A DNA stretch of 61,903 nt, from the sequence record SRR20825006_104. One strand, given 5' to 3'. Every line of letters begins with the position of its first letter. Positions within the stretch are counted from its first letter, which is position 1. Under the pieces are notes generated by a model. The model was not told where the DNA came from and did not search any database. It saw only the letters and a list, made by a program, of their open reading frames with translations. Positions 3,475-61,903 of this stretch are shown here, one piece after another. Position numbers and translations under genes: made by a program.

Positions 3475-3480
3475 AAATTT

Positions 3481-24965: not shown

Positions 24966-25571
24966 ATGCCTGAGTCAGAATTACTTATAGTTTTTGTTAA
25001 GAATCCAATACTAGGAACTGCTAAAACAAGGTTGGCTCAAACTGTTGGTGATGAGAATGCGCTAGAAATCTATTTAGAGTTACTAGAGATAACAAAAAAA
25101 GTGGTGTTAAGTGTGAAATCTGACAAAGAAGTTTGGATGTCTAGAAGGATTGATGAAAACGATATGTGGGAGGAGTCTAGTATCGTAAAGCGAGTTCAAC
25201 GGGGAGATGGATTGGGAGGTCGAATGAGTAATGCATTTAAATATGCACTCAAAGAAAAAAAGTACGCTAAGGTGGTAGTTATTGGAAGTGATTGTCCAGA
25301 TATAACCTCAGAAACAATAGAATCAGCTTTTACTATGCTAGATGAGAAAGAAGTTGTTTTTGGCCCTGCTAGCGATGGTGGTTATTATTTAATTGGGATG
25401 AAAAATTTCTACCCAGAATTATTTAAAGAGATAACGTGGAGTGTTTCTTCCGTTTTGGAAAATTCTATCCAAAAATTGAAGGAAATGGAAACTAGTTTTG
25501 CTTTGTTAAAAGAGCTCAGCGATGTAGATACATACCAAGATTGGGAAAGATTTCTCAATAATAGAAAATAG
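24966..25571 (+). CDS. TIGR04282/DUF2064-type glycosyltransferase-like protein
   Basis: FVKNP..G.AKTRLA, IGSDCP, GPASDGGYYLIG, DVDT. Confidence 0.88.
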   Translation: MPESELLIVFVKNPILGTAKTRLAQTVGDENALEIYLELLEITKKVVLSVKSDKEVWMSRRIDENDMWEESSIVKRVQRGDGLGGRMSNAFKYALKEKKYAKVVVIGSDCPDITSETIESAFTMLDEKEVVFGPASDGGYYLIGMKNFYPELFKEITWSVSSVLENSIQKLKEMETSFALLKELSDVDTYQDWERFLNNRK

Positions 25572-25578
25572 ACAAACT

Positions 25579-26265
25579 ATGTTGAGTGTAATAATTCCAG
25601 TTTATAATGAATCGGAAGGGATTTCAGACTTACTTACTTACTTGAATGCAGAACTAAAAGGTACTGTTTCAGAAATAATTGTAGTAGATGGTGGTAGTGT
25701 TGATAACACAGTTCAGCTTTGTGAAAAGTATGAAGCTAATGTGTTTGTGAGTGATAAGAAAGGAAGGGCTTCTCAAATGAACTACGGTGCGCTTAAAGCC
25801 AAAGGTGATGTGTACTATTTCCTCCACGCGGATTCATTTCCGCCAACTCAATTTATTAGAAATATACTAGATCAAATTGAAGGTGAGGTTGTTGCTGGTT
25901 GTTATCAATTAGCATTTTCGCCCAATCATCCCGTGTTGAAATTTTACGCATGGTTTACACGGCTTAATATTGATACGCTCAGGTTTGGTGATCAAAGTCT
26001 TTTTGTAACTAAAGAAGCATTCGAGAAAGTTGGCGGTTTTGATGAGCGTTTAATTGTAATGGAAGATCAAAAAATTGTTCGAGACTTAAAGAAAGTTGGT
26101 AAGTTTACAATTATCAATAAAAAAGTAACCACCTCGTCCCGGAAATACTTTCAGGTTGGGCTGATAAAATTACAATTTATTTTTACACTAATACTCTGTT
26201 TGTACTACCTAAGAGTGAGGCAGAGTACACTCATTAACGTCTATAAAAAACTAATGGCTTCTTAA
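25579..26265 (+). CDS. TIGR04283-type GT2 glycosyltransferase
   Basis: SVIIPVYNE, VDGGS, GRASQMNYGA, FLHAD, FGDQ, MED, TSSRKY. Confidence 0.88.
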   Translation: MLSVIIPVYNESEGISDLLTYLNAELKGTVSEIIVVDGGSVDNTVQLCEKYEANVFVSDKKGRASQMNYGALKAKGDVYYFLHADSFPPTQFIRNILDQIEGEVVAGCYQLAFSPNHPVLKFYAWFTRLNIDTLRFGDQSLFVTKEAFEKVGGFDERLIVMEDQKIVRDLKKVGKFTIINKKVTTSSRKYFQVGLIKLQFIFTLILCLYYLRVRQSTLINVYKKLMAS

Positions 26266-26321: not shown

Positions 26322-26329
26322 TATATTTG
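26322..26329 (+). promoter_or_regulatory. Bacteroidota-type -7 promoter element upstream of uptake operon
   Basis: TATATTTG matches TAnnTTTG about 30 bp before 26359; no clean -33 TTTG. Confidence 0.45.
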
Positions 26330-26358: not shown

Positions 26359-28461
26359 TTGAAGATATTTCGAATCCTCCCAGTTATACTTTTAATTTCT
26401 CAAGGTTTGCTAGCCCAACAATCTTTTGAGCGTGCGGAAACCGATGCAGGCACCATTGGTTTGTCTATAACCAACTTTGGCACAATAGGTAAGCCAGATG
26501 TGAGAAATAATCCCGAAAGTGGTTTTAGCATGCGCTTTCCTAAAAACACAGGAACCGAGCATCTTTTTGAAGCCGGCATCTGGATTGGTATGTATAAGAA
26601 TAATAGTGCGCGGGTTTCTAGCTCAGCCGTTACAAATTCTGCGGGATATTCAAGAGGGGCTACAGGGTTTGAGTTTACAGCCGAAGATTTAATTAAGCGA
26701 AGAAGTACAAATCCAGAAGATGAATTTTTCTCTGTTGGAGCGGTAAGCGAACGTGATATTCTTACAAGCTTTTCGGATAGAAGAAGAGAAGTAAATGGTA
26801 CGCCAATTAATGGGCATGACAATCCGCTTTACGTAGATGTAGCTCTAGAGAGTTACAATTGGGGTTTTCCTTTCACTGAAAACTTTACCATTCTACGTTA
26901 CGATATTACCAATATGAGTGATGTGTATGCTACACCAGAAACGTGGGATAGTGTGTATGTAGGAATGTATGCTGATTTAGTAGTTCGAAATGTGAATAGT
27001 ACTACAGAAGTAGGTGGAGATTTTTTCAACAAAAATGGTCTTGGGTATATAGACTCTCTACAAACTATTTATGCGTTTGATGCTGGCTCTCAAGACAATC
27101 CAAGCTTGAACACATACGGTGCTATTTCTATTATGGGCGCCAACTACAGAGATGAGTTTTTCCATCCAGCAAATCCAGATACGGCTGGCGGACAATTTAC
27201 ATCCTCAGGACTAAATGTGCCTAAGGTTGGCCCAAGTTATTGGCTGTTTGGTAATGGTTCTGGTGATTTCTCGCGTCCTTCTACAGATGGGGATAGATAT
27301 ACTAAAATGGCAGAGGAGTTTCCTTATGCTAATAATGAAACAAAACTACGTAATGATGGCCAAACCTCGGCAGGAAACTACATCTCATTTATTTCTATGG
27401 GGCCATTTCCGAAAGTAGAACCAGGCGAGACGATTACAGTATATTTCGTTTTTTCAGGAGCTCTAAAACCGGATAATTTTCAAGGTTTATCGGATAAGAA
27501 GGTTGATACCGAAGAGACAAGAAGCGATTTAGTTAAAACATTGAAATCGGCTAGTAGCGTATTCCGCGGTGAAGATAAAAATAACAACGGTACGCTAGAT
27601 GCTGGTGAAGACACAGATAATAATGGTGAGTTAACCCGCTATTTATTCCCAACCCCTCCTGACAACCCAAAAACAAAAATTGTGCTAGAAGCAGGAAAGG
27701 TTTCCATTTATTGGGATAAAACTGCTGAGCGATCTATTGATAGGGTTTCTGGGAACATGGATTTTGAGGGGTATCGCGTTTATAGCTCTGAACTAGGTGA
27801 TGATTTAAACCCCACACCTAGGCTAATTCGAGAGTTTGACAAGCCGTCTAATAATATTGGTTTTGATGTTGGTTTTGGTGAAGTAGCACTTTCTAGTCCT
27901 GTAACTTTTGAGGGTGACACCACTAATTACTGGTATAAGTATGAGTTGAATGGCTTACTCAACGGTTGGCAGTACTTAGTTTCTGTAACTTCATTCGATA
28001 GTGGTGATGAAGTGTTTGGGGTAGAGAGTCTAGAAACCAGTACCAATTCAAATAGTGTACGAGTATTTCCTGGTACTCCGGTAAATGCTAATTTTGGTGA
28101 GAAAGGATTTGAGGTTGGAGTTTATCCAAACCCATATAGAGTGAACGCAGCGTGGGATGGTTTGAGTGAAGGAGATAGAAAATTATATTTCTACAATTTA
28201 CCTGCAAATTCGGAAATAAGAATCTATTCCATTGCAGGTGATATTGTTGCAGAGTTGAACCATGATGCATCAACATATAGTGGTGATATAGGCTGGTTCG
28301 ATAGCTTTAGTGATAATCCGAGAGTAATGGCAGGTGGAGAACATGCTTGGGATTTACAATCGGAGGCTAATCAAATCTTAACAACAGGTTTATACCTTTT
28401 TACTGTAAAAGATTTGGATTCAGGAAAAATACAAACAGGTAAACTAGCAATCATAAAATAA
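26359..28461 (+). CDS. Secreted hypothetical protein with atypical T9SS-like CTD
   Basis: Signal peptide, HLFEAGIWIG, paired DxNNNG/DxDNNG Ca-binding loops, DFEGYRVY, C-terminal VYPNPY...GLYLFTVKD...GKLAIIK. Confidence 0.8.
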   Translation: MKIFRILPVILLISQGLLAQQSFERAETDAGTIGLSITNFGTIGKPDVRNNPESGFSMRFPKNTGTEHLFEAGIWIGMYKNNSARVSSSAVTNSAGYSRGATGFEFTAEDLIKRRSTNPEDEFFSVGAVSERDILTSFSDRRREVNGTPINGHDNPLYVDVALESYNWGFPFTENFTILRYDITNMSDVYATPETWDSVYVGMYADLVVRNVNSTTEVGGDFFNKNGLGYIDSLQTIYAFDAGSQDNPSLNTYGAISIMGANYRDEFFHPANPDTAGGQFTSSGLNVPKVGPSYWLFGNGSGDFSRPSTDGDRYTKMAEEFPYANNETKLRNDGQTSAGNYISFISMGPFPKVEPGETITVYFVFSGALKPDNFQGLSDKKVDTEETRSDLVKTLKSASSVFRGEDKNNNGTLDAGEDTDNNGELTRYLFPTPPDNPKTKIVLEAGKVSIYWDKTAERSIDRVSGNMDFEGYRVYSSELGDDLNPTPRLIREFDKPSNNIGFDVGFGEVALSSPVTFEGDTTNYWYKYELNGLLNGWQYLVSVTSFDSGDEVFGVESLETSTNSNSVRVFPGTPVNANFGEKGFEVGVYPNPYRVNAAWDGLSEGDRKLYFYNLPANSEIRIYSIAGDIVAELNHDASTYSGDIGWFDSFSDNPRVMAGGEHAWDLQSEANQILTTGLYLFTVKDLDSGKIQTGKLAIIK

Positions 28462-28471
28462 ATAATTACTT

Positions 28472-31171
28472 ATGAAAAAATTGATACAAGTATGCGCAGC
28501 TGCACTTGTGCTGATGTTACCGATTTTGGTACAAGCTCAAGATACAGTTTCGATAAGAGACTTAAATACGTATGACAACCTAACTGAGTATTCTCAGGCT
28601 GCGGTTGAGGCACATCCCTTAAAGAATCAAACAGTAATTTATACTGCTGTTATAGTTTCAAACCCTAGAAGCTCTGGATTATCTACACCTTCAGACACAG
28701 ATAATGATGGCGTTATCGATAGAATTAGCCGTATGCACGTTTTCATTACTGATACTGCAGCAGTTAACCAAGGAAGAGATGGAATGTCTATTCAATTGGT
28801 GGAAGAAGATTTTGGTTTGCTTGCAGGTTTAAACCGTGGTGATGTTGTTACTTTTAAAGGTAGACTTACTTTCTTCAATGCAGTAGCACAAATGAAAGTT
28901 GATGAAGCTCCAACCATTATTGGTAGTGTTTATTTAAACTACCCACAACTTGAAGTATTACTTACCCCTTGGGATGTTACAGTTGATGAATTGATGACAG
29001 CTAATAATGATGGTACATATCAAATAAATATTGCTAATTACCCAAAGTATAATGGCGCTTACGTAAAGCTTTCATCTGCTACTGTAAGTAATGTAACTAT
29101 TGCAGACCGTCCAAACTGGGCGCTAAACGAAAATGGTTCTAGGATTTATGCCTATGACACTTCTCTACGTTACAGAAACGATAGAACAAGTGGTTACTTA
29201 CCGGGCTGGAACTACCGTCGTTTAGATGGTTTAGAAGGTGGTGAGGATGGACTATTTGTTCCTCCAACTCCTGGCGCTATTGTTGATGTGTCTGGTTTCA
29301 TGCTTTTAGATGGCTTCAGTAATGATGGTCATATTGCAGCAAACCAAGTTGCTTTTAAAATTGCACCAATGGAAGATGGTGTTCTATGGGCAACAGATGA
29401 CGATTCTGGAGATGATATCCGTTGCGTTGATGGTGAGCTTTGTAATGGCGAAACTCTTTCTTGGCCAAGTGACTTAACAGTTATTGGTTTACCTCCAGTT
29501 GTTAGCAACGTAGCTCTTTCAGACTCAATGCCTACTAGCTCCAGTGAAGTAGTTGTTACTGCTGACGCTGATGCAGAAGGTGATGCTACTGTAGCTAATG
29601 TTAAAATTGTATACACTAGCGGAGACTCAACTCTTACAGCTACAATGACGAATACTGGTGGTAACTCATATTCATTCACGTTACCTACGTATCCAAACTT
29701 TAGCCCAGTTTCTTTCTACTTATTAGTAGAAGATAGCGACGGCTTAGTTGGTAGAAATCCAATTGCTGGAACATATAATTTCTTTGTTGCGGATGATGTG
29801 GTTACTTCTATTGTTCAAGTGCAAAAAACAGCCGACGAAAGCACTGGTGTAAGCCCATTATTAGGTGTAGGGAAAATTCCAGTTAATATCTCTGGTATTA
29901 TTGTTTCTGATAACAGTGATGGTGTAATTATTCTTCAGGAAGCTGCTGCTGCTTGGAGTGGAGTTTTCTTAGAAAAAACTACTGCAACTCAAGCACTTGT
30001 AAAAGGTGATGCTATTACTGTAACTTCAACCGAAGTTGTTGAAGCAGTTGTTTCTGGAAGTAGTAGTGTTGGTCTAACACAACTTACTAAACTTGAGTTT
30101 ACAGTAAACTCTTCAGGTAATGATGTTTCTACAGTTATTCCTACCGTTGCAACTGATGATGTTGTTCGCATGCAAGCAGCTGGCGAGTTAGAGCCATACG
30201 AAGGTATGCTAGTTAAATTTGCAGGTGTAGAAATTGTTGACCGTGGTAACTACGGTGAGTATACACTTAGAAACACCGATGCGGACTCTACAGGTGGTGT
30301 AATCTTTAACGAAGATATCAGATCTGATGAAGTTGGAGCTGTTAGTATTTCTTATGAAATAAATAACACACTTAGAGAAGGTATTACTTTTGATGCTTAT
30401 GGCATTGTTGCTGCATCATTTGGTGCTCCAAAAGTACACCCACGTAGTGAAGCTGACTTTGTTGGAAACGACGGTAATGTGTTTACTCCGTTACTCGATT
30501 TTGCTCTTAGTACTCCTGCAGATAGTGCAGAAGTAATTGTAAATGGCGACCTAGAAGTTTCTTGGGGAGCTTCATTTGACTTAGATGGAGATGATGTGAC
30601 TTTTGAGTTTGTACTGTACTCTGCTGACGGTACTGCTGTACTTGCAACTGTACCATCGAATGGTGCTTCTACAGCTACAGACGTAACGTTGCCATTTAGC
30701 TTGGTTGATGGACTTCTTGCAAGCGAAGGTTTGACAGTTGGTCAAAATAAAAGCTTCCTCTGGAATGTTCGTGTAAGTGACGGTTCTGATACTTTAGATG
30801 TTCACGGTGCCTATGGTAACTTTGGGGATGATTTCAGTCCGATTTATCGCTTCATCACTTTAGAAAGAGGATCTGCAACTTCAAATGAAGAAATTGCTGG
30901 TTTACCAGAGAAGTTTAGTTTAAACCAAAACTATCCTAACCCATTCAACCCTACTACTAATATTTCTTTCGACTTGCCAAACTCGGCAACTGTAACGCTT
31001 GAAGTATTTGACATGTTGGGAAGAAAAGTGGCAACTATTGTTAATGAGCAATTGACAGCGGGTACGCACAATGTAAGTTTTGATGCTGCAAGATATGCAA
31101 GTGGTATGTATATCTATCGCATTCAAGCAGGTACATTTGCAAGCACTCGTAAAATGATGCTTATTAAATAA
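28472..31171 (+). CDS. T9SS cargo with tandem OB-fold (ExeM/YhcR-like) modules and type A CTD
   Basis: [41 protein letters not shown] plus a more divergent N-terminal copy; [16 protein letters not shown]. Confidence 0.85.
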
Positions 31172-31185
31172 TACATTTCAAATTT

Positions 31186-31217
31186 TATGGGAGTACAATC
31201 ATGTACTCCCATATTTT
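31186..31217 (+). terminator. Intra-operon stem-loop (partial terminator or mRNA stabiliser)
   Basis: TATGGGAGTACA-ATCA-TGTACTCCCATA-TTTT, perfect 12-bp stem. Confidence 0.65.
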
Positions 31218-31234
31218 ATATAGGCCGAATAATT

Positions 31235-32749
31235 TTGATATCACAAAAGCATATTAAAACTTCATTACTAGCAACTATTTTGGTTGGTTTGGTATTTGGT
31301 AGCTGTAAAGAACCAATTACCGGAGATCGAAATGAGAACAAAGCTCCTAGTACTAATCTTACTGTAGAAGCGATAAATAGAGGAAATGATTTTCGCTTGT
31401 CCAGTCAGATTAAGATATCATGGTTTGGAATAGACCCTGATGGCTATGTTATTGGCTATGAATATGCAATAAATGATACCTCCGAAAGTGCTTGGACTTT
31501 CACAACTAAAACAGATAGCACATTTATACTGCCTATTACACCTGGGCAACAAAATGATGATGTCCTATTTAAAATACGGGCTGTAGATAATGAAAATCTA
31601 CGTGATCCAGTTGGGGCGAGATTAGTTTACCCTGTAGTTAATTCTGAGCCTGAAGTTGCTATAAACAGAACTCAATCTCCACCAGACACACTATATTCTA
31701 TTGCAAGTTTCGGATGGTCTTTTAGTGATCCGGATGGAATTCTAAACTTAGATAGAACAGAGATTGCTGTTAATGACACGGTTAATGGCTGGGTTGAAAT
31801 TCCATTTACAGAAAGTGATGAAGGTCAGCTTTTTATTTCGCTTGAAGTTGATAATTCTACTTCAGGTGCTAAAGATGCGAGAGTTTTTCTTGGTAAAAGC
31901 TATTCAACATTACAAGTAGATGGGCAGAGTCTTGTAATTCCAGGCGTTAAAGTAGGTGAGAAGAACACCTTTTATGTTCGTGCAATTGATGCAAGCGAAT
32001 CCAAGAGTAACGTAGATACTCTATCATGGTTTATAAAAGAGCAAAAGTCTAAAACTCTGATACTAAATGACTACTCAGGATCGAATTCTGCGGAAACATT
32101 GGAATTCCATTTAAATATCTTAAATGAAGGTGGTTTAACCCCAGATGTTTGGAATATTAATGACGGCGAAGTAGTACAAGGAAGAGTAGCTCTCTCGGAA
32201 GCTTTTCCAACCGTTGTAGACCCTACTTTGGAAAAAACACTGGCCAAATGGGATCATATCTATTGGATTTCAAATGATATGGACAGAAATATTGTATATG
32301 CTCAAGAAATATTAAGAGAATTTTTTAGTAATGGTGGCACATCGTTTGTAAATATTCCCATTAAGAAAATGAATACAACGGATGAGGTTTTTAATTTTAT
32401 CCCAGTAGATTCTATAGCTACAGGTGATTACTACCTCTTTCAAGATACACTTGTTGTTCCTACCCCACCGCTAGAGGCAACATTGAAAGTTGCTGCGGGT
32501 GGTTTCGCATTAGTAAGTGCAAAACCTGTAAAAGGGATTAGCGGCAGTAAAGCTTTGTACTCAGCAGATTATCATAGAAAGACAAGTAGAGGCTTTAGTG
32601 CCTATAATGGCTATGAACAAGTTGCAATAGAAAACCCTGAAGGTAACTTAGTTTACTTTGCAATCGATTTGAAAAATCTGAACGGAAATAACAATCTAGG
32701 CCAACTGATTCAGGAACTTGTTGTCGGCAGATTAGGATTTAAACAATAA
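31235..32749 (+). CDS. Lipoprotein with FN3/Ig-like domains
   Basis: Likely TTG start at 31235; lipobox VFGSC; ISWFGIDPDG..GYEY and FxIRAVD/FYVRAID strand motifs. Confidence 0.75.
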   Translation: MISQKHIKTSLLATILVGLVFGSCKEPITGDRNENKAPSTNLTVEAINRGNDFRLSSQIKISWFGIDPDGYVIGYEYAINDTSESAWTFTTKTDSTFILPITPGQQNDDVLFKIRAVDNENLRDPVGARLVYPVVNSEPEVAINRTQSPPDTLYSIASFGWSFSDPDGILNLDRTEIAVNDTVNGWVEIPFTESDEGQLFISLEVDNSTSGAKDARVFLGKSYSTLQVDGQSLVIPGVKVGEKNTFYVRAIDASESKSNVDTLSWFIKEQKSKTLILNDYSGSNSAETLEFHLNILNEGGLTPDVWNINDGEVVQGRVALSEAFPTVVDPTLEKTLAKWDHIYWISNDMDRNIVYAQEILREFFSNGGTSFVNIPIKKMNTTDEVFNFIPVDSIATGDYYLFQDTLVVPTPPLEATLKVAAGGFALVSAKPVKGISGSKALYSADYHRKTSRGFSAYNGYEQVAIENPEGNLVYFAIDLKNLNGNNNLGQLIQELVVGRLGFKQ

Positions 32750-32753
32750 ATAA

Positions 32754-35711
32754 ATGAAGAAGTTTAGTTATATACTCGTTCTCTGTTCGTTTCTGCTTCA
32801 TACTGCGGTTTACGCTCAATCTGCAAATGGAAGTTTAGAAGGTGTAATTAAAGAAGACGGAACTGGAGAGACACTCCCAGGTGTAAATATTTTAATTATT
32901 GGTACTAGCTTTGGTGCTGCTACAGATGTTGATGGTGCATACAAAATTCAGAATATTCGACCAGGTGAGTATTCTGTTCGTATTACCTACATTGGTTTTG
33001 AAACCATACTACTTACAGGTATCAAAATTACAGAAGGAGAAGCAACAGAGCTCAATTACACTTTAAAAGCCCAAATACTTACCTCCGATCAAGAAATTGT
33101 AATTATTGGTGAAGCTCCAATATTTGATGTAGAAAAATCATCAACATCCGCTACAATTTCCAGAAAAGAAATTGAAGCTGCACCCGTGAGAAAAGTAGAA
33201 GATGCAGTTTCTCTTCAATCTGGTGTTATTAAGGATCCAACGGGTTTATACATTAAAGGTGGTAGAGCAAATGAAACTGGCTACGTAGTTGATGGCGTTT
33301 CTGCTCAAGATCCATTGGCTGGTACCGGATTTGGTCTCGATTTGGGAGCCAATTCGTTCAGTAATATTGAAGTTATTACTGGTGGCGTTGGCGCCGAATA
33401 TGGTGACATGACCTCAGGTGTAGTTTCCGTACAAACTAGAGATGGTGGAGATCGCTACGAAGGTTCTTTTTCCCACAAAAGAGATAATTTTGGTTCCAAC
33501 GTGATGTCTAATCGCGCTAACTATTTCATGGATGTTTATGAACTAAGCTTAGGTGGCCCAGAGTTATTGACGGAAAGAATATTACCAGCTCTTGGCTTAG
33601 ACCTTCCTGGTAGTTTCTCATTTTATGCTACAGCACAAGTTTCTTTAGCCGATGGCTATACCAAGCTTTCTGCAGATCAGATTAGTTCATCTACTACTAA
33701 TTCTAACTTTTGGTCGCCTCGTCAGGGTAATAGATGGAACGGAATGCTTAAGCTGACATACAATATTAAGCCAGGTATGAGGCTTCAAGGTGCTTATCAG
33801 CGGTCACTTACCATTAATCAGAATACACGAATGTTGCAGATTACTGGTGCAAATACTCAGATTCAGCCAGGATTTCAGTTCAATTTTTCGAATGGCTTTC
33901 TGGATAATGCAAATACTTACACGCACGACTCCAACTTATCTTATTTAAAGTGGACTCAAACTGTTTCGACTTCTGCTTTCTACGAAGTTCAAGTGAGTCG
34001 ATTATTCACTAATCTTAGAGCAGATGCTAACGGTAGAGACTGGCGTCCCGAAAATGTGGATGGCGAATTTGACCCTGAAAGTATTATTACATTTCCAGCA
34101 GAAGAATATGATGCAGGCGAAGATTTTACTTACGTACTTGCAGGGCCTGGCTATTACAACAATGGTGGAATTGCTACACTATGGCACGATCACTTTGCGG
34201 AAGAGATTACAGTAAAATCGAGTATTACGAAATATTTTAATGAGCGTCAAAACCAGTTGGTAATAGGCTTTGAATCCAAATTCAATGATTACCAATGGAT
34301 TGACATTACCCGCCCTTGGATTGGAGCTCCAATTCGAATCGATGAAAACACTGTTTCCGAAACATTCCGAGTTGGTGAAAGTTTTGATGCTTGGAGAGTG
34401 AAACCAAATAGAGGGGCAATTTTCGTTACCGATAAAATTCGATATAATGGACTTATTGCAAATATTGGCGGACGTTTCGAATATTGGGCACCTGGTAAAT
34501 ATGTAGATACTAGAGTGGAGGAAGCATTAGATCCGAATACATTTTCTACCATCCCAGCGTTTGTTGCGCAAGATTATTTAGACGAAACGACCAAGATTTT
34601 TGGGATGAGATATAAGTTTATATTCTTACCAAAAATCAATGTTTCCTTTCCTGTAAGAGAGAACCAAGTTCTATTTTTTAACTATGGCCACTCTGCAAGA
34701 ATTCCTCACCCTAGTTTTGTATATGCAGGTTTAGACCCCTTTTATCAAGATCAATCAGATCTATCAAACTTGGGTAATCCTAACCTAAATAGAGAAATTG
34801 ATATTTCTTATGAAATAGGATTGAGAAACCAAATTTCTCCAAATGATGCAATGAATGTTTCGGCATTTTGGCGTGACAAATACGACTTTGTTACCTCTCA
34901 ACAAATTACAGTGTTGGATGTTGATAACAGGCCAACGACAAAAGCATTTAGAGTTAATGGTGATTATGCCCGTTCAAGAGGGGTTGAACTTACCTATCTG
35001 AAAAGATACCGAGATATTCTTAGTGGTCAGGTATCGTTCACATACAGCCGAACTGAAGGATTAAGCTCTACGACTGATGATAATCTACAAGGTATTTCAG
35101 CTAGTAAAAATGTAGGAAACAATATAGAAACTCCATTAGCTTGGGATCGCCCGTTCGATATTAAGGGGAACATAACTTTCACTTACGATAGAGATAAACC
35201 ATTATTTGATTTAAAACCATTAAATCAAATACAAGTATTCCTATCAGCTGTTTGGAGAAGTGGTGCTAGATATACACCATATGATCTCGCTGGCTATGAA
35301 AGAAATCCTATAACGGGTGATGAGGGTTGGAGACCTATTTATGAAATTAATGATGATCCAGCTCAAAGATATAGTGAACTTGGCCCTGCATGGTTTTACA
35401 TGGACATGAACATCCAGAAATGGTTTACTATTAAGGGAACTAGAGTAAGTACCTTCTTAGAAATAACGAATTTACTAAATAATAAAAGTGCGGTTATTAT
35501 TAACCCAGTAACAGGCGAGGGATATAAGTCATATCCTAACGATCCACAAAAGCTTGTTGCGCTTAGAAGTGACCGCTCCTACGATGTGCCTAATAGTGTT
35601 AGAGATCCTCGTTATATTGATCCTACAGATAATGGCTTGCCTGCTTATGAAAACCCAGCGAATTACTTAGAACAGAGACACATCGTTTTTGGAGTATCAA
35701 TACGTTTTTAA
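32754..35711 (+). CDS. TonB-dependent outer-membrane transporter with N-terminal carboxypeptidase-regulatory-like domain
   Basis: GETLPGVNI..GAATDVDG.Y.I, plug IKGGRANETGYVVDGVS, GGVGAEYG, GNPNL, C-terminal Phe. Confidence 0.92.
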   Translation: MKKFSYILVLCSFLLHTAVYAQSANGSLEGVIKEDGTGETLPGVNILIIGTSFGAATDVDGAYKIQNIRPGEYSVRITYIGFETILLTGIKITEGEATELNYTLKAQILTSDQEIVIIGEAPIFDVEKSSTSATISRKEIEAAPVRKVEDAVSLQSGVIKDPTGLYIKGGRANETGYVVDGVSAQDPLAGTGFGLDLGANSFSNIEVITGGVGAEYGDMTSGVVSVQTRDGGDRYEGSFSHKRDNFGSNVMSNRANYFMDVYELSLGGPELLTERILPALGLDLPGSFSFYATAQVSLADGYTKLSADQISSSTTNSNFWSPRQGNRWNGMLKLTYNIKPGMRLQGAYQRSLTINQNTRMLQITGANTQIQPGFQFNFSNGFLDNANTYTHDSNLSYLKWTQTVSTSAFYEVQVSRLFTNLRADANGRDWRPENVDGEFDPESIITFPAEEYDAGEDFTYVLAGPGYYNNGGIATLWHDHFAEEITVKSSITKYFNERQNQLVIGFESKFNDYQWIDITRPWIGAPIRIDENTVSETFRVGESFDAWRVKPNRGAIFVTDKIRYNGLIANIGGRFEYWAPGKYVDTRVEEALDPNTFSTIPAFVAQDYLDETTKIFGMRYKFIFLPKINVSFPVRENQVLFFNYGHSARIPHPSFVYAGLDPFYQDQSDLSNLGNPNLNREIDISYEIGLRNQISPNDAMNVSAFWRDKYDFVTSQQITVLDVDNRPTTKAFRVNGDYARSRGVELTYLKRYRDILSGQVSFTYSRTEGLSSTTDDNLQGISASKNVGNNIETPLAWDRPFDIKGNITFTYDRDKPLFDLKPLNQIQVFLSAVWRSGARYTPYDLAGYERNPITGDEGWRPIYEINDDPAQRYSELGPAWFYMDMNIQKWFTIKGTRVSTFLEITNLLNNKSAVIINPVTGEGYKSYPNDPQKLVALRSDRSYDVPNSVRDPRYIDPTDNGLPAYENPANYLEQRHIVFGVSIRF

Positions 35712-35712
35712 T

Positions 35713-36711
35713 ATGAGAAAATTGATAAATAAATATAGTTTTATAGTATTGGTACTGGCTTTGGCTTCTTTTGTAGAAGTTAAAGCACAAACATCATATG
35801 GTACTGATAGAGCAGGAACAGAATCATTCCAATTCACAAAAATTACTGTTGATGCTAGGAGTGCAGCTATGGGGAATTCCAATATGGCAGACGCTACCGA
35901 CGGATCTAGCTTATATTGGAATCCAGCATTAGCTTCAAAAATTGGAAGTTCTTACGCAACACTTTCGCATACAGATTATTTAGTAGATACTGGGTTAGAG
36001 TATTTTAGCTATATACACAAGTTAGGCGATTTCGCAGTTGGAGGTTCTGTCCAATATTTTAACTCTGGAGATATTAACGAGACTACAGAATCTCAGCCTT
36101 TTGGAACTGGGCGTACATTTAGGACCAATCATCTATCAGTTGGTTTAACTGGTTCGCATAAAATCACTGATCTTTTTAGCTACGGAATTACTTTAAAATA
36201 TTTAACTATTGGCATTGAAGAGGTTTCCTATAGCACAGGAGCCATCGACTTTGGTTTTTCTTATTTAGTAGGTGATACAGGGCTAAGATTCGCTGTTGGT
36301 ATCAATAACTTTGGTCTTGATGCTTCTCCAAATGGAGAAACTGTAAGAAGCACGCCGAACGGTGATGTTACTGAAGAACCTGATACAGATATATCACTTC
36401 CTACTCGATTTACTATTAGTGCAGCTTATACAGCTTTAAACTCAGAGAATAATAGCTTAATTCTAACTTCGCAAATTACTAACCCAAGTGATAATGCTGA
36501 GCAGTTCAGCATTGGTGCTGAGTACGGTTTTATGAAACAGTTTTTCTTTAGAGGCGGCTACGAATTTGGTATTGAAGAACGCATGTTGCCTAGTTTAGGA
36601 ACAGGGGTAAAAGTACCTTTTGCAAACCGAAAAATAGCTGTCGACTATAGCTTTACTAATTACGATAGATTAGGCTCTATTCACCGTATTACACTTGGAT
36701 TTGAACTATGA
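35713..36711 (+). CDS. PorV/PorQ-family outer-membrane beta-barrel
   Basis: FQFTKITVDARSAAMG...SLYWNPA, SIGAEY, FFRGGY, VDYS, LGSIHRITLGFEL; ATG at 35713. Confidence 0.85.
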   Translation: MRKLINKYSFIVLVLALASFVEVKAQTSYGTDRAGTESFQFTKITVDARSAAMGNSNMADATDGSSLYWNPALASKIGSSYATLSHTDYLVDTGLEYFSYIHKLGDFAVGGSVQYFNSGDINETTESQPFGTGRTFRTNHLSVGLTGSHKITDLFSYGITLKYLTIGIEEVSYSTGAIDFGFSYLVGDTGLRFAVGINNFGLDASPNGETVRSTPNGDVTEEPDTDISLPTRFTISAAYTALNSENNSLILTSQITNPSDNAEQFSIGAEYGFMKQFFFRGGYEFGIEERMLPSLGTGVKVPFANRKIAVDYSFTNYDRLGSIHRITLGFEL

Positions 36712-38003
36712 TGATGAAAAATTCAAAAATAATTTTAGGACTACTTCTTATCACTAGTATCGTAAGTACGAGCTGTGATTCTTTGTTTGGCACAAAAAAT
36801 GATTCGGCAACAGAAGATATTTTTAAAGAAGGGAAGATTGACCCATCTTCAGAAAATGTTGATGGCTATGCACCCGTTTTGCCAGTTTGGGCTGATTTTG
36901 ATGCCCCAACTGATGTCCATATTGGTTTCGATACATTCGTATATGTTACTGATGCTAAAGGTCTCCATTTACTAGATCGCGCAGATTTAACACCACGTAA
37001 AACCATAGCATTTACAGGTGCCGATGTTGTTGTGCAAGACCGTTTATTAAATGTTTATGTAGCTGCAAGAATTGATACTGTTATAAGACAGTCAGGAGTC
37101 GACGTTTCTTATAATTTGCCCGCTATTTTTAAGATTAAAAACATGAATGGCTCAGGCGATGTTGTTATTGTTGATACTCTAATATTCCCTTTTGATGATG
37201 CAAGTTTGAGTACTAGCGCCGCACAAAACGCAAGATTAAATAAAACTTCTCCTAATAATTATGAAAAAGTAAAAATAACGGGTCTAACCGTATTAGTGGA
37301 TAATAATATTTATGCAACAAGAACGGGGCCATTAAATAGTTCTCAACAGATTGCCGCACCCGACAATACAGTTTTAGAATTTGGCCGACGTGTTGTAAAT
37401 GGAGAGAAAATTGATAAAATGGTGAATGTTCGCCAAATTGTAACACTTAATCCTGTAACACCATCACTTAAAAGTGCAGTAGGATTAGGCTCAATAACTT
37501 CGTTTGTGGCTCCTCCTCAGAGAGATCAGTTGACAAGTGATCGTAGTTTTATTGTCACGCAAACCGATCAAAATATTAGTATCGATTTCCGTGTTCTTTG
37601 GATAAAAGCGGAGCTCACAACAGATGGATTGGTGTATTCCCAAAACTCATCATTATTAGCCCAAGACACTTCTAAAGCTAGTGGGTTTCTATATGAGCCC
37701 CAAAAATTTAGTTCCCCTTCAGATGTCGCTTTTTCGGGAGATGATGATGCTTTTATTTTTGTAGTAGATGAGCTTCAGAATATGTTTTACCAATTTCAGT
37801 CTAGTGGCCTAGAAGGTGTAAACCCTCCAGCAGGTGTAGACCAAAGTGGAAAAAAAATTATCGTTTCTTTCGGTGGATTGGGAGTAGGGCCCAAGCAATT
37901 CAATAAACCTTCAGGGGTGGCCTACTACAATAAAGTTGTTTACGTTACAGATAAGGGCAATAACAGAATATTAAGATTTAAACTTACATCAGACTTCGAG
38001 TAG
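36708..38003 (+). CDS. Lipoprotein with NHL-repeat beta-propeller
   Basis: Lipobox STSC; FDAPTDV..G.D..VYVTD, FSSPSDVA, FNKPSGVAYYNKVVYVTDKGNNRILRF; ATGA overlap. Confidence 0.8.
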   Translation: MMMKNSKIILGLLLITSIVSTSCDSLFGTKNDSATEDIFKEGKIDPSSENVDGYAPVLPVWADFDAPTDVHIGFDTFVYVTDAKGLHLLDRADLTPRKTIAFTGADVVVQDRLLNVYVAARIDTVIRQSGVDVSYNLPAIFKIKNMNGSGDVVIVDTLIFPFDDASLSTSAAQNARLNKTSPNNYEKVKITGLTVLVDNNIYATRTGPLNSSQQIAAPDNTVLEFGRRVVNGEKIDKMVNVRQIVTLNPVTPSLKSAVGLGSITSFVAPPQRDQLTSDRSFIVTQTDQNISIDFRVLWIKAELTTDGLVYSQNSSLLAQDTSKASGFLYEPQKFSSPSDVAFSGDDDAFIFVVDELQNMFYQFQSSGLEGVNPPAGVDQSGKKIIVSFGGLGVGPKQFNKPSGVAYYNKVVYVTDKGNNRILRFKLTSDFE

Positions 38004-38043: not shown

Positions 38044-38073
38044 AAAGGCAGCTCATTTAGAGTTGCCTTTTTT
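38044..38073 (+). terminator. Intrinsic terminator ending the uptake operon
   Basis: AAAGGCAGCTC-ATTTA-GAGTTGCCTTT-TTT. Confidence 0.8.
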
Positions 38074-38087
38074 CTATAAAACATATT

Positions 38088-39302
38088 ATGAATAGAGTAC
38101 TTCTTTTAATTATCTGCTTGCTTCTGAATTGCACTGCAAAGGAAGCAAAACAAAATGAGAATAATCTTATTCTAATATCCTTTGATGGTTTTAGAGCTGA
38201 TTATCTATCAAAAACTGAAACACCAAACTTTGATATTCTAGCTAATCAAGGTGTTTCAACAGAGGGTTTAATTCCTGTATTTCCTTCAAAAACGTTTCCA
38301 AATCATTACGCAATTGTAACAGGTTTATATTCGGAAAATAATGGCTTAATTGGGAATAGTATGTATGATCCTGATATGGGTTTAATGTATTCGATGGGGA
38401 ATAGAGAACAAGTAGAAAATCCAGATTGGTATAAAGGTGAGCCGATCTGGAATACAGTAGAAAAACATGGTAAAAAAGCGGGGACTATGTTTTGGGTTGG
38501 CTCAGAAGCACCAGTGCAAGGCATGAGACCGAGCTATTGGAAGAATTATGATGGAAGAATGTCTGATTCTACCCGAATTGATACCGTGTTAAAGTGGATG
38601 ACTCTACCTTCTGAAAAGAGCATAGATTTAGGAACATTGTATTTCAGTTTTGTAGATTCTCAAGGGCACCGTTTTGGCCCGGATTCTCCCGAGGTTGTAG
38701 AAGCTATACAGCAAGTAGATGAATTAGTTGGTTATTTAATTGAACAATTAAAAGCGAAAGAGCTTTGGGAAACCACCAATATTATTATAGTCTCAGATCA
38801 CGGGATGTCGGACGTTTCAAGAGAAAGAATAGTGATACTGGATGATTATTTGAATGTAGATGATATCGACATTATCTCGGGTTCCCCAGCTGTAATGATG
38901 AATGCAAAAAATGGAAAGCTGAATGAAATATACAGCAGTTTAAAAGCCAATGAAGATCACTTTAAAGTGTATAAGAAAGAGGAGATCCCAGAACGATATC
39001 ATTTAAAGAAGTCAGGAAGAATGCCAGAATTATTGTTAGTTGCAGACCGAGGATACACTATCAATACCGAGGCGTATTTTGAAAACCGACCAACTGCGCC
39101 AAATGGCGGTACGCACGGGTTTGATAATGAAGACAAAGAAATGTGGGCACTATTTTTAGCTAAAGGCCCAGCTTTTAAAAAAGGAATAAAAGTAGAGGCT
39201 TTCGAAAATATACATCTTTACGCACTTATGGCTAAAATAATGAACCTTGAGCCCGCAAATAACGATGGAAATTTAGATAAAATTTCTTCAATACTGAATT
39301 AA
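38088..39302 (+). CDS. Nucleotide pyrophosphatase/phosphodiesterase (alkaline phosphatase superfamily), probable lipoprotein
   Basis: ISFDGFR, PSKTFPNHY (catalytic Thr), DSQGH, SDHGM, GTHGFD; LLLNC lipobox. Confidence 0.92.
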   Translation: MNRVLLLIICLLLNCTAKEAKQNENNLILISFDGFRADYLSKTETPNFDILANQGVSTEGLIPVFPSKTFPNHYAIVTGLYSENNGLIGNSMYDPDMGLMYSMGNREQVENPDWYKGEPIWNTVEKHGKKAGTMFWVGSEAPVQGMRPSYWKNYDGRMSDSTRIDTVLKWMTLPSEKSIDLGTLYFSFVDSQGHRFGPDSPEVVEAIQQVDELVGYLIEQLKAKELWETTNIIIVSDHGMSDVSRERIVILDDYLNVDDIDIISGSPAVMMNAKNGKLNEIYSSLKANEDHFKVYKKEEIPERYHLKKSGRMPELLLVADRGYTINTEAYFENRPTAPNGGTHGFDNEDKEMWALFLAKGPAFKKGIKVEAFENIHLYALMAKIMNLEPANNDGNLDKISSILN

Positions 39303-45613: not shown

Positions 45614-46765
45614 TCAAATTACTTTAACTAATCCTCGCATTGCAAACTGCTCTGCTGCAAGCTTTCGCAAAGGCGTATTAAGAAGTACAGAAATGAACGC
45701 TTTTTTAAAGAAAGGTATGGTTCGTTTTCTACCCAATCTCATATTCCACTCTGCTCTTAACGCAACTTTTTTTGAAATCAACTGCTGCTCTTTCTGATAT
45801 TGTGAAAGGTAGTGTTCCGCTTTAGTTGGTTGTTCTTGAATCGAGGACAATGCTTGCGACAGCTTCCACGCGCCAATCCATCCTAAGTTCATTCCTTGTC
45901 CTCCAATCGGGCTAACAACATGAGCGGAATCGCCAGCGAGTATAATTCTATTTTTGAAAAACTGTTCAGCCCTAAAGTATTGAACTCCAAAACTACTCAG
46001 CATGGTGCATTTTGTATCAGATAAATCGTAGCTTAATCGTTTACGGATTAACTCCGCTAACAAAGCTTGAGTCGGTTTATTGACAAACCTTTCGGTTTTA
46101 ACCACCCATCGTCTCATCCCATTAGGCAGTGGGAAGCACTCAAGCATTCCGTCCTTAGGAAGGAAAACAGTGGCTTTAGATCCAAATTCTGTTGTGTCTT
46201 CGAAGTCACCCATGATGTAAGTGTCGGGATATCTCTTCCCTCCAAAAAAGATACCCGTCTTTTGCCTAATCAAACTGTTTTTACCATCACAACCAACTAG
46301 GAAGTCGGAAGATATCTGAAATTCACGACCATCTTTTTTATACCAACACACTACTTCCTTTTCATCATGGCGAATATCGGTTACCTCTGCTTCTTGAATA
46401 AGTCCGCTTGGATTTAGAGCCAGAAATGTTTCTTTCAAGATTTGTTCTGTTTTAAACTGCGGACATGAAAGAATGAAGTTGTATGGCTCCTTGAGGGAGC
46501 TGAAATCTATCTCACCAAGCTTGCGGACGCCATCATGGGCAATGCCTTTTTGAATATGAATTCCCGCTTCTAAAAACTCTGTTTCCATTCCAAGTAATTG
46601 AAACAACTCCATTGAGATGGGATGAATTCCTAACGATCTGGAGTCGGGGACGGGAGCAGCTCTTCGTTCAATGATGAAGCAAGAAATGTTTAGCTTTGCG
46701 AGTGCTATACCAAGGAAAAGTCCAACAGGGCCACCACCTACAATGCAGACACTAATTTTAGGCAT
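45614..46765 (-). CDS. FAD-dependent monooxygenase
   Basis: VGGGPVG, VGCDGKNS.IR, LAGDSAHVVSPIGGQGMNLG. Confidence 0.9.
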   Translation of the reverse strand: MPKISVCIVGGGPVGLFLGIALAKLNISCFIIERRAAPVPDSRSLGIHPISMELFQLLGMETEFLEAGIHIQKGIAHDGVRKLGEIDFSSLKEPYNFILSCPQFKTEQILKETFLALNPSGLIQEAEVTDIRHDEKEVVCWYKKDGREFQISSDFLVGCDGKNSLIRQKTGIFFGGKRYPDTYIMGDFEDTTEFGSKATVFLPKDGMLECFPLPNGMRRWVVKTERFVNKPTQALLAELIRKRLSYDLSDTKCTMLSSFGVQYFRAEQFFKNRIILAGDSAHVVSPIGGQGMNLGWIGAWKLSQALSSIQEQPTKAEHYLSQYQKEQQLISKKVALRAEWNMRLGRKRTIPFFKKAFISVLLNTPLRKLAAEQFAMRGLVKVI

Positions 46766-47459
46766 CTTTTGAATAGCTGAGGATTAACCGAAAAGGAAAT
46801 AAGCGTTGTACATTCCATTTCTCGGGAATTACATGTTTCAATTCTGAAAAAGTAAAAGACCTTTTTACGGAAGTGAGTCCATCTTGGGTGATGAAAGAGT
46901 TTCTGAAAAGTAACCTAGAGAAGATGTTAAAAAGTGCGTATCCAATATCACTTCGTTCGATATCATTAAAAATAACTTTTTTACTCGCTAAGGAAGTCGC
47001 TTCGTCTAAGAACTTTGAAAATGTATCAGAATCGAGATGGTGTAGAACATGATTTGAAATCACAAAATCGAAGGTTCTATTTTCTAGAACTAATTGGGTG
47101 GAGCTGCAATGTTTAAACTCAATTTTTGGATGAGGCTCTAGCTTGGAAACGAAATCAAGAGCTCGTACATCTAGTTCAATTGCAGTGATTTTTAAATTAA
47201 GGCCATCATTCTGAGCCCATTTAGCAAGCGAAAAAGGAATATCACCTCCGCCAAAACCGATATCGAGTAGCGTAAATTCTCTATTGTGCTCTTGCATCAA
47301 AGGTCGGAGTTGGATTGTATAAATTCTTCTCCATTGAGAAAGAATTCCATTAATCCTGTAAAACTGGCGGTATGTATTCTCTAGTTTGTACTGATTGCAA
47401 TCATCCCTATCCATTAGTTCAACTAAATCAGTTCGGCGGGTTTTGAGAAAAAGTGGCAT
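46758..47459 (-). CDS. SAM-dependent methyltransferase
   Basis: ELMD, LLDIGFGGGD, FDFVISNHVLHHL, DGLTSVKRSF. Confidence 0.88.
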   Translation of the reverse strand: MPLFLKTRRTDLVELMDRDDCNQYKLENTYRQFYRINGILSQWRRIYTIQLRPLMQEHNREFTLLDIGFGGGDIPFSLAKWAQNDGLNLKITAIELDVRALDFVSKLEPHPKIEFKHCSSTQLVLENRTFDFVISNHVLHHLDSDTFSKFLDEATSLASKKVIFNDIERSDIGYALFNIFSRLLFRNSFITQDGLTSVKRSFTFSELKHVIPEKWNVQRLFPFRLILSYSKDA

Positions 47460-47461
47460 AA

Positions 47462-48562
47462 CTAAGAGTTAATCATAGTGAAAAGTCCGGACTCTATCGT
47501 TAATCCTGGCCCAAAAGCCATCGGCAGAATAGTAGTATCCGTTTCTAAATTAGATTTCAGAATTTCCTCTAACACAAATAGAATGGTTGCACTGCTCATG
47601 TTTCCGAATTTAGAAAGCACTTTTCGTGAGGCTTCAACCTGTAAATCAGCAAGCTCCATTGATTTTTGAACTTTATCGACAATGGCTCGGCCACCTGGAT
47701 GTACAGCCCATAGATCTACGGCATTAGCAGAGATTGAAAGTGAAGAAAATAAAGGATCGATTACAGAAGCTAAGTTAGCAGAAATGATATCTGGAACGTA
47801 ACTAGAAAGAGTCATCTGAAAACCAGTATTGCCGATAGTCCACGCCATATCTTGTTCGCCTTCATAGGCAAGAGAGGAGGCGAAGGCATTCATCCTAAAT
47901 CCTTTTTGGGTAGGTTTTTGAGACGAAACCAAAACACCAGCGGCCCCGTCTGCAAATACAGAAGAAGCTAGTAGATTATCAATATCATTTTCGGATTGAA
48001 TGTGAATGGTGCATAATTCCGCACAGATTACCAATACACAAGCATTAGGATCGGCTTCGCAAAATGCAGCGGCCATTTTAAGAGCAGGAAATGCCGCATA
48101 GCATCCCATAAACCCGATGTGAAATCGCTGGGTAGATGCAGATAAGCCTAAACCTTTTACCACCTCGAAATCAGGTCCTGGCGCAAAAAAACCAGTACAA
48201 GAAACCGTAATTACGTGGGTTATTTTAGATTTATCGATTTCTGGATTTTGTAGCAGTAATTTTTTCCCAACTTCTAAAAATAATGAGGTGGCTTCTGTTT
48301 TATATAAGACATTTCTTTCAGCGGTAGAAGGAGTATCTTTGCCACTTAATGCTCTGCTGAAGAATGCATCGTCGTTCTTTTCTAGGAAATCGCGTATTAC
48401 TGTATGGCGTTTCTCAATTCCAGATTGAGTATAAATTCGGTGGATAATGGCTTCCGTTTTTCTATCCCTTGCCAAGCGTTCTTTCATAATCTCCCGAATG
48501 GTTTGTTGGGGAATAGCGGTATCGGGATTAGCGATTATAATGTCGTGGATATATGCGGGCAT
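47462..48562 (-). CDS. Type III polyketide synthase
   Basis: Catalytic triad motifs FMGCYA, VHPGG, GNMSS; also SCTG, FADGA, AFGPGL. Confidence 0.95.
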   Translation of the reverse strand: MPAYIHDIIIANPDTAIPQQTIREIMKERLARDRKTEAIIHRIYTQSGIEKRHTVIRDFLEKNDDAFFSRALSGKDTPSTAERNVLYKTEATSLFLEVGKKLLLQNPEIDKSKITHVITVSCTGFFAPGPDFEVVKGLGLSASTQRFHIGFMGCYAAFPALKMAAAFCEADPNACVLVICAELCTIHIQSENDIDNLLASSVFADGAAGVLVSSQKPTQKGFRMNAFASSLAYEGEQDMAWTIGNTGFQMTLSSYVPDIISANLASVIDPLFSSLSISANAVDLWAVHPGGRAIVDKVQKSMELADLQVEASRKVLSKFGNMSSATILFVLEEILKSNLETDTTILPMAFGPGLTIESGLFTMINS

Positions 48563-61602: not shown

Positions 61603-61675
61603 GCCAGTGTAGCTCAGTTGGTAGAGCAGCGGTTTTGTAAACCGCCGGTCATCGGTTCGAATCCGGTCACTGGCT
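61603..61675 (+). tRNA. tRNA-Thr(TGT)
   Basis: GCCAGTG/CACTGGC acceptor, GCGGT-TTTGTAA-ACCGC anticodon arm, GGTTCGAATCC. Confidence 0.97.
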
Positions 61676-61689
61676 CATATGTGAAAAAT

Positions 61690-61772: not shown

Positions 61773-61778
61773 CATTAA

Positions 61779-61851: not shown

Positions 61852-61857
61852 CAAAAA

Positions 61858-61903
<46 letters not shown>

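Follow-up and report, generated by a model that had tools for sequence, protein, structure and literature searches.

A SusD-less TonB-dependent transporter operon coupled to type IX secretion, a candidate system for extracellular nucleic acid capture in Balneolaceae and their relatives

What might a TonB-dependent transporter import when it is encoded beside neither a SusD lid nor carbohydrate-active enzymes (CAZymes), and together with a type IX secretion system (T9SS) cargo protein? This question is raised by six genes, g1 to g6, at positions 26359-38003 of a 61,903-nucleotide stretch of DNA from sequence record SRR20825006_104. The whole stretch, hereafter the window, comes from a Balneolaceae bacterium on the basis of named close g3 homologues from Balneola and Balneolaceae. 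An earlier reading of the sequence (the original prediction) had described a SusD-less, T9SS-coupled uptake operon and proposed extracellular nucleic acid as its substrate. Our analysis confirms the observation and supports the interpretation. From its sequence, the reading that fits the operon best is that of a DUF5689-transporter system for DNA uptake or utilisation, in a variant that depends on the T9SS and does without SusD. No prior description of the six-gene operon was found in a literature search.

The six open reading frames (ORFs) all lie on the + strand and are tightly spaced, as first described, neighbours being at most 10 nt apart or slightly overlapping everywhere except between g2 and g3. 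A 10-nt gap separates g1 from g2 and a 4-nt gap g3 from g4, g5 and g6 overlap by 4 nt, and the 23-nt overlap of g4 with g5 becomes a 1-nt gap if g5 starts at its probable ATG, 35713. The g3 ORF opens at ATG 31187, inside a 12-bp hairpin (31186-31213). A start at TTG 31235 gives a lipoprotein signal ending in VFGSC and a protein of about 504 aa, where homologues have 498-502 aa, and reproduces the 63-nt, hairpin-bearing g2-g3 gap that had been claimed. The terminator previously placed at 38044 is a hairpin (38044-38070, + strand) followed by a T run, at the operon end.

The protein most telling of a possible ligand is encoded by g2 (28472-31171, + strand), an 899-aa predicted T9SS cargo composed of two DUF5689/ExeM-type OB modules, an Ig-like domain similar to the one in P. 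gingivalis arginine deiminase, an extra domain and a type A C-terminal domain (CTD). The sorting domain (residues 821-896, 30932-31159) scores above cutoff with both PF18962 (47.3 bits, cutoff 27) and TIGR04183 (48.7 bits, cutoff 23), and was matched in 31/31 g2 orthologues. The OB modules, about 230-280 residues long and present in two copies per protein, were delineated as module N (residues 20-305, 28529-29386), by hhalign against module M, and module M (residues 440-668, 29789-30475), by the family profile and by orthologue and hidden Markov model (HMM) matches. They match each other with an hhalign probability of 99.5% (E 1.8e-22). In the PDB, the g2 family profile hits residues 8-237 of an EEP-domain protein (9sf8_A, E 5.6e-9), a segment that is the non-catalytic part preceding the catalytic domain. 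Similarly, the N-terminal portion of the NCBIfam ExeM_NucH_DNase model is matched by 24/31 orthologues, the Pfam 'OB-fold nucleic acid binding domain' by 7/31 and DUF5689 (PF18942) by 2/31; the NF033681 match on g2 spans only model positions 30-121 of 546. HMMs of the g2 modules also match the DUF5689 regions of genes neighbouring the operon in other loci, with E-values down to 1.5e-18. Thus, the OB-fold T9SS cargo of the original prediction is borne out on both counts.

Comparison with extracellular nucleases of the ExeM/NucH/Xds/SsnA type indicates which part of these enzymes g2 would share. Its OB module is homologous to their N-terminal, non-catalytic region, and unlike them g2 lacks an EEP catalytic domain: no nuclease domain was found in g2, and PF03372 (EEP) was matched neither by the window copy nor in the orthologue scans. 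Since this domain is lacking, g2 is at most a binder, not a nuclease. Deletion of the OB domain abolishes the nuclease activity of Xds, an ExeM homologue (PMC6746945), and SsnA is reported to have the OB-plus-nuclease layout of the ExeM type (PMC9744736). When shorter proteins were searched with g2 residues 440-668, two matches were returned, neither of them a named DUF5689 lipoprotein, and single-sequence PDB searches with g1, g2 and g4 gave nothing useful.

The operon is conserved well beyond the window. The g1 family comprises 1640 representatives at E<=1e-3, of which 128 are left at E<=1e-30, and, counting one genome per species, g1 relatives were found in at least 593 genomes, of which the best 80 loci were surveyed. 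The order g1-g2-g3-g4-g5-g6 is intact in 41 of these 80, so that the synteny survey recovers the conserved co-occurrence of the six genes. Another 22 loci are interrupted by a contig end and are otherwise consistent with the six-gene order; the remaining 17 differ, several of them merely because they exceed the 10-kb flank or hold an extra g2-like gene. The carriers are labelled Balneolales, Rhodothermales, Ignavibacteria, Kryptoniota and Calditrichota, with a few of Bacteroidia type. The branching of a quick g4 tree agrees with taxonomy, as expected if the operon is inherited vertically. The most divergent operon gene is g2, yet it is collinear among relatives. In one locus (L051, 5184-9005), g2 with its sorting domain and g3 form a single 1274-aa ORF. 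We did not use this fusion, which likely reflects a lost stop codon or an assembly error, since the sorting domain would be internal.

The genes that adjoin the operon point in the same direction as g2. In the window, the operon is followed by an accessory gene outside the conserved core (38088-39302, + strand) for a type I phosphodiesterase/nucleotide pyrophosphatase (NPP) with a signal peptide (PF01663, E 5e-101). An NPP-type gene lies downstream in four related loci as well (L001, L002, L007, L013) and is lacking in L009. The earlier argument that this phosphodiesterase points to nucleic acid therefore stands as regards the presence of the gene and falls short as regards its conservation, which is confined to close Balneolaceae. 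We scanned 26 of the 31 ORFs just past g6, leaving out three from close Balneolaceae loci and two second ORFs; many of the downstream ORFs end at the locus boundary. Pfam EEP, PLDc_2, DUF5689 or lamin-tail (LTD) domains occur in 14 of the 26. EEP enzymes follow g6 in L011, L014 and L022, which group with Rhodothermales loci in the g4 tree, and also in L042, there with a sorting domain, and in L053. DUF5689 is found downstream in L033, L036, L048, L059, L065, L067 and L073, accompanied by PLDc_2 in six of the seven (not in L059, where the ORF ends at the locus end), and a lamin-tail domain in L045 and L046. Adding the downstream genes of L078 and L080, which carry the OB module, brings the nuclease-linked total to 16/26. 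Upstream, 42 of 101 ORFs were scanned, leaving out Balneolaceae and more distal ones, and a single one was nuclease-linked, a DUF5689+EEP+sorting-domain protein in L010. The best NCBIfam names of the downstream enzymes, all weak and below cutoff, are MnuA membrane nuclease, nuclease NucT and ExeM/NucH.

Thus, the class of the adjacent enzyme changes by clade in the g4 tree and covers three unrelated hydrolase folds. The presence of three such folds beside one conserved operon is the strongest argument for a phosphodiester polymer as substrate, and on these sequence grounds the substrate is most probably nucleic acid. The nucleic acid substrate proposed originally is supported in two ways, by the OB homology of g2 to DUF5689 and ExeM/NucH proteins and by nucleases of different folds adjoining the operon in other lineages.

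We compared the operon to the known DNA-uptake systems that pair a DUF5689 protein with an outer-membrane barrel; a full-text literature search for DUF5689 returned only the works on these two, ddb (PMC12478041) and Riemerella (PMC8459023). The ddbABCDEF locus of B. thetaiotaomicron is reported to encode three nucleases, the transporter DdbC, the DUF5689 protein DdbD and DdbE, and to be required for DNA depletion. DdbD is predicted to be the cap and DNA-binding partner of DdbC and resembles a DNA-binding HIN domain, and the authors relate ddb to the transformation genes of Riemerella (PMC12478041). In Riemerella anatipestifer, RA0C_RS04915, a CarboxypepD_reg outer-membrane barrel, and RA0C_RS04920, a DUF5689+DUF5017 protein, are each described as essential for transformation (PMC8459023). 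The pairing that marks both modules, a DUF5689-type protein encoded with a transporter, is present here in g2 and g4. As in ddb, a TonB-dependent transporter that is not paired with SusD is encoded with a DUF5689-type OB protein, which would follow the logic of a polysaccharide utilisation locus for DNA. As to secreted nucleases, none lies in the six-gene core here; an NPP-type enzyme adjoins it in the window, and 16/26 downstream genes of relatives are nuclease-linked. As in Riemerella, a CarboxypepD_reg-bearing outer-membrane barrel accompanies a DUF5689 protein, which there acts on extracellular DNA.

The differences are also clear. The DUF5689-like g2 is a two-module T9SS cargo and not a lipoprotein, and it is separated from g4 by g3 rather than adjacent to the transporter. 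Four further conserved genes are present, g1, g3, the PorV-type g5 and the NHL-type g6, and the nucleases lie outside the conserved core and vary in type by lineage. The Riemerella module, for its part, is a two-gene operon whose DUF5689 protein also has DUF5017 and for which genetics showed a function in transformation; neither a PorV paralogue nor a CTD cargo is described for it, and 'T9SS' has 0 occurrences in the accessible part of that paper (PMC8459023). Likewise, the main text of the ddb paper contains 0 mentions of T9SS, PorV, Rhodothermia, Ignavibacteria or Balneolia (PMC12478041). The alternative uptake-complex architecture put forward in the original prediction therefore holds as a SusD-less, T9SS-coupled arrangement, and not as a wholly new kind of system, since DUF5689-plus-transporter DNA systems are already described.

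The link to type IX secretion extends from g2 to g1 and g5. A secreted 700-aa protein is encoded by g1 (26359-28461, + strand); it begins with a beta-supersandwich and continues through a Ca-loop-like linker and an FN3 domain to a PorZ-like C-terminal beta-sandwich (residues 584-700, 28108-28458) that is predicted to dock on g5. No Pfam family matched g1. Its AlphaFold2 (AF2) model has a pLDDT of 84.2, and the best Foldseek matches of the N-domain are the N-terminal domains of GH94/GH116 enzymes, which are weak (E 4e-7, TM 0.23-0.28). The C-terminus of the PorZ model NF052228 matches the g1 tail at E 8.6e-6; this match covers the last ~90 of 757 model positions, at 24 bits against a cutoff of 260, and the PorZ body is absent from g1. 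Across the family, the PorZ C-terminus was matched by 17/25 g1 members and the type A CTD model by 3/25, weakly. The description of g1 as a CTD-bearing protein is thus right for a PorZ-like tail; a Por_Secre_tail match is lacking in the window copy.

The partner, g5 (35689-36711, + strand), is a PorV/PorQ-family paralogue of the 14-strand barrel type, in agreement with the PorV-family barrel predicted earlier. It scores above the cutoff of the family model NF033709 (174.6 bits, cutoff 90) and below those of the PorQ (90.3 against 220), PorV (82.2 against 250) and PorV2 (38.3 against 325) equivalogs, and is therefore a family member and a distinct paralogue. We predicted the complex of g5 (residues 34-340) with the g1 tail (residues 575-700), without the family alignments, and obtained an ipSAE of 0.91 in 3/3 runs, with at least 85% of contacts agreeing and a partner pLDDT of at least 76; the best ipSAE of the three controls was 0.00. 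In calibration, the ipSAE mark was attained by 51/78 solved complexes and 2/108 mismatched pairs. Uncleaved C-terminal domains are known to be kept by cognate PorV-like barrels, namely in PorZ-PorQ and in type B cargo with PorP/SprF (PMC10202324). The g1-g5 pair resembles PorZ-PorQ, where a PorV-like barrel retains a secreted protein at the surface via such a domain (PMC10202324), in that the g1 tail matches the PorZ C-terminus and g5 belongs to the PorV/PorQ family, and differs in that it sits in a transporter operon and not in the secretion machinery. The family match of g5, the PorZ-like tail of g1 and their predicted docking together support T9SS coupling through a locus-specific PorV paralogue, as originally suggested.

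The remaining three genes encode the transporter and two lipoproteins, each in line with its first description. The 985-aa product of g4 (32754-35711, + strand) is a TonB-dependent transporter with CarboxypepD_reg, Plug and barrel domains and a TonB-box-like QEIVIIGE at residues 113-120; CarboxypepD_reg and Plug were matched in 27/27 g4 orthologues and TonB_dep_Rec_b-barrel in 13/27. The best PDB match of the g4 profile was 9gbc_A, a code cited in what is accessible of a paper on siderophore piracy in Bacteroides. We dropped it as a clue to the substrate, as the match covers the N-terminal domain and Plug only. For g3 (31235-32749, + strand), no family match was obtained in the domain-library searches. 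Its AF2 model (pLDDT 87.9) comprises FN3-like tandem domains and a C-terminal alpha/beta domain, and Foldseek returns FN3 tandems only, which agrees with the FN3-like lipoprotein predicted. The ESM Atlas gave only unnamed clusters for g1 and g3, the nearest named cluster to g3 being DUF4960 (0.90, 166 shared features), which is a lead only. An NHL beta-propeller lipoprotein of 431 aa, matching PF01436, is encoded by g6 (36708-38003, + strand). The g6 family profile matches the TRIM71 NHL domain (E 1.3e-24); we did not use this likeness to an RNA-binding protein as evidence for nucleic acid, since NHL propellers are generic. All g3 (33/33) and g6 (26/26) sequences have the lipobox Cys.

Family searches of the Pfam and NCBIfam type found no SusD or CAZyme family in the six operon proteins, and no glycoside hydrolase (GH), polysaccharide lyase or carbohydrate esterase family in the operon or its immediate window neighbours, which bears out the SusD-less and CAZyme-less locus that had been claimed. 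The SusC/RagA model TIGR04056 reaches 40.1 bits on g4 against a cutoff of 368.25, with the N-terminal 125 residues alone matching, and g4 is not of the SusC type. The SusD fold is all-helical. As g3 consists of FN3 tandems and an alpha/beta domain, it is not a SusD, and g6 is an NHL propeller. Like SusCD utilisomes and the BtuG/XusB-type lids, the operon co-encodes a TonB-dependent transporter with probable substrate-binding lipoproteins (10.1101/2023.03.17.533168), and the stalk-and-head layout of g3 is that of surface glycan-binding proteins. It differs from the utilisomes in having no SusC or SusD and in that part of the complex would be delivered by the T9SS, and no lid family named in the accessible portion of that work matched the operon proteins (10.1101/2023.03.17.533168).

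We also considered how the operon may be expressed. The hairpin after the g2 stop (31186-31213, + strand, T-rich tail), which is listed as terminator-like and is recovered by folding, has a 12-bp stem and folds at -19.1 kcal/mol (z -4.88), a value equalled by 0/200 shuffles. In 37/44 related loci, a hairpin directly 3' of the g2 stop folds better than all 20 shuffles; its position is kept and its sequence is not. It reaches -12 kcal/mol or lower in 40/44 loci, and at least five T occur within the 8-nt tail in 15/44. Its probable role is to divide g1-g2 from g3-g6, either as a partial terminator or by stabilising the RNA. At the 5' end, the upstream TAnnTTTG element reported earlier is present (TATATTTG, 26322-26329, + strand, 30 nt before the g1 start) as a possible promoter element, and is no commoner than chance: the window holds 89 matches to TAnnTTTG against 77.6 +/- 9.7 expected, with 11 more + strand copies within the operon. 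The motif carries little weight because it is not enriched. A scan for sigma-70-type promoters gave 35 sites, fewer than in shuffles (44.5). An Rfam search in and near the operon found no riboswitch or other RNA family, its only hits being tRNAs at 61.6 kb, and a reading of the locus as a cofactor-riboswitch-controlled importer was dropped on this result.

In the account that we propose as reasonably probable, the operon proteins form an outer-membrane machine for the capture of extracellular nucleic acid and the import of its fragments with TonB energy. We infer its functional steps from sequence homology, predicted folds, the predicted g5-g1 interface, synteny and the hairpin. The two OB modules of g2 would hold DNA or RNA at the cell surface. 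The g1 protein would stay cell-bound, its PorZ-like C-terminal domain kept by the operon's own barrel g5, in the way that PorQ keeps PorZ. With its FN3 stalk and alpha/beta head, g3 would act together with the g6 propeller as accessory binders or as a lid for g4, replacing SusD. A separately encoded nuclease or phosphodiesterase would cut the polymer, its type differing by lineage: NPP in the lineage of the window, EEP in Rhodothermales, and PLD/NucT-like or EEP-CTD enzymes in Ignavibacteria. The products would then be carried into the periplasm by g4, and the post-g2 hairpin probably sets the expression of g1-g2 above that of g3-g6.

Several observations weigh against this account. The g2 protein is strongly acidic, with an isoelectric point (pI) of 4.17 and a net charge of -65 in the window copy and a median pI of 4.24 across the 31 orthologues (exceptions lie near pI 9), which is odd for a protein whose proposed ligand is a polyanion; in addition, 5/31 orthologues match CBM_56. 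There is no nuclease within the six-gene core, the neighbour in the window is an NPP-type enzyme beyond a terminator, and 10/26 downstream ORFs are unrelated or unassigned. The Ignavibacteria loci are kin, so the neighbour counts are not independent, and the NPP, EEP and PLD families also include lipid phosphodiesterases. The likeness of g4 to DdbC and RA0C_RS04915 is one of shared CarboxypepD_reg and barrel architecture only. The N-domain of the g1 model weakly resembles the N-domains of glycoside phosphorylases. A PDB search showed a chain of a PorV-CTD complex (8glj), and because such complexes are already solved the g5-g1 prediction may mirror likeness to the PorV-CTD mode, and not a choice of g5 over the housekeeping PorV. 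The Bacteroides-type lipoprotein export motif occurs in only 3/33 g3 and 1/26 g6 sequences, for which reason the surface exposure of g3 and g6 stays putative; nearly all sequences of both have an acidic residue at +1 or +2. Finally, g1 stands alone in L032, L041 and L064, each with the full 10 kb downstream, and in at least three shorter loci. These solo copies, with no g2-g6 within 10 kb downstream, are in metagenome-assembled genomes labelled Chitinophagales or Bacteroidetes (L032, L041, L064; also L028, L030, L066).

How does this account compare with other explanations? The same machine could serve natural transformation, importing long DNA for recombination and not for nutrition; it would then do in Rhodothermia, Balneolia and Ignavibacteria what the pilus-independent outer-membrane step does in Riemerella. 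The essential role of a CarboxypepD_reg barrel and a DUF5689 protein there (PMC8459023) and the relation that the ddb authors draw between the two systems (PMC12478041) would fit this, as does the apparently vertical inheritance of the operon, with a g4 tree matching taxonomy. The PLD-type neighbours, moreover, best match NucT, a weak match below cutoff. NucT is a transformation-linked nuclease of Helicobacter. However, the window holds no competence genes (ComEC, DprA, ComF), the adjoining NPP and EEP enzymes are degradative and suggest breakdown to small products, and this analysis found no evidence that the carrier lineages are transformable, so we consider a role in transformation unlikely. 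A bolder proposal, to which we likewise give only a small chance, is that the operon represents an ancestral T9SS-assembled TonB DNA importer of Bacteroidota and their relatives, with its cargo on a dedicated PorV paralogue, which carries long DNA and of which the ddbCD and Riemerella modules are reduced descendants. If so, Rhodothermia, Balneolia, Ignavibacteria and Kryptonia would possess pilus-independent natural competence, and the substrate binders would be docked secreted cargo in place of lipoprotein lids.

Uptake of a glycan or another non-nucleic polymer would assign oligosaccharide binding to the OB modules, carbohydrate binding to g1 and a SusE/F-like role to g3. Such a reading could draw on the acidity of g2, on CBM_56 in 5/31 and CHB_HEX_C_1 in 2/31 of its orthologues, on DUF4960 as a lead for g3 and on the likeness of the g1 N-domain to GH94/GH116 N-terminal sandwiches, although the Foldseek matches behind the last of these are weak (TM 0.23-0.28). 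We think it quite unlikely, given an operon free of CAZymes and flanks whose 68 ORFs include one GH only (in L011, a GH67 on the opposite strand), as against 16 downstream genes linked to nucleases. The presence of lipid phosphodiesterases in all three enzyme families would also suit a general uptake of organic phosphodiesters such as phospholipid head groups and nucleotides, in which a FadL-like g5 passes hydrophobic moieties and the purpose is phosphorus scavenging, not specific to DNA. Two further points agree with this, a FadL/Toluene_X match of g5, weak and below cutoff (E 6e-5), and a preprint whose title reports TonB-dependent transporter-lipoprotein complexes for phospho(inositol)lipid use in Bacteroidota (10.64898/2026.09.03.749221). 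The enzymes beside the operon, however, carry fused DUF5689 or LTD modules of a kind characteristic of ExeM/Xds-type nucleases (PMC6746945) and have nucleases as their best NCBIfam names (weak, below cutoff), and g5 is above the PorV/PorQ family cutoff and predicted to bind a CTD-like domain; this reading appears very improbable. We retain the capture of extracellular nucleic acid and import of its fragments as the favoured explanation.

Other features of the window and of the related loci lie outside this question. Immediately 5' of the operon is a TIGR04282/TIGR04283 glycosyltransferase pair (24966-26265, + strand), named by NCBIfam for arsenosugar biosynthesis; it is syntenic in most Balneolaceae loci (not in L003-L006) and not elsewhere, as are the upstream DUF349 and MBL genes in Balneolaceae loci. 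Several Ignavibacteria loci (e.g. L033, L038, L042, L065, L080) instead carry genes for 2-oxoacid dehydrogenase E1 and E2 and lipoyl synthase upstream of g1 on the same strand, which looks like lineage synteny with no evident functional link. Elsewhere in the window, EgtB and EgtD (2173-4425, + strand), both above NCBIfam cutoffs, point to ergothioneine biosynthesis, and a second T9SS type A cargo of 1560 aa with a Por_Secre_tail (4534-9216, + strand) weakly matches the model of an M6-like inactivated metalloprotease. A type III polyketide synthase-like protein (DpgA-like, below cutoff), a PRK06202-type protein and an FAD monooxygenase are encoded at 45614-48562 (- strand), in an order that we take to recall phenolic-lipid (Srs-type) operons. 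Four tRNA genes, the last one incomplete, close the window (61603-61903, + strand).

Extracellular DNA is a large pool of phosphorus, nitrogen and carbon in sediments, soils and sludge, and to our knowledge DNA uptake by bacteria outside the Proteobacteria is barely known. The operon is a testable candidate for the use of this pool, with relatives in at least 593 species-level genomes, and its position-conserved internal hairpin offers a test case for the control of stoichiometry. If the favoured explanation is true, the DUF5689-transporter principle, so far demonstrated only in Bacteroidales and Flavobacteriales, would extend to deep branches of the group, and type IX secretion with a private PorV paralogue would build part of a nutrient-uptake complex, linking two systems that are hallmarks of these bacteria.

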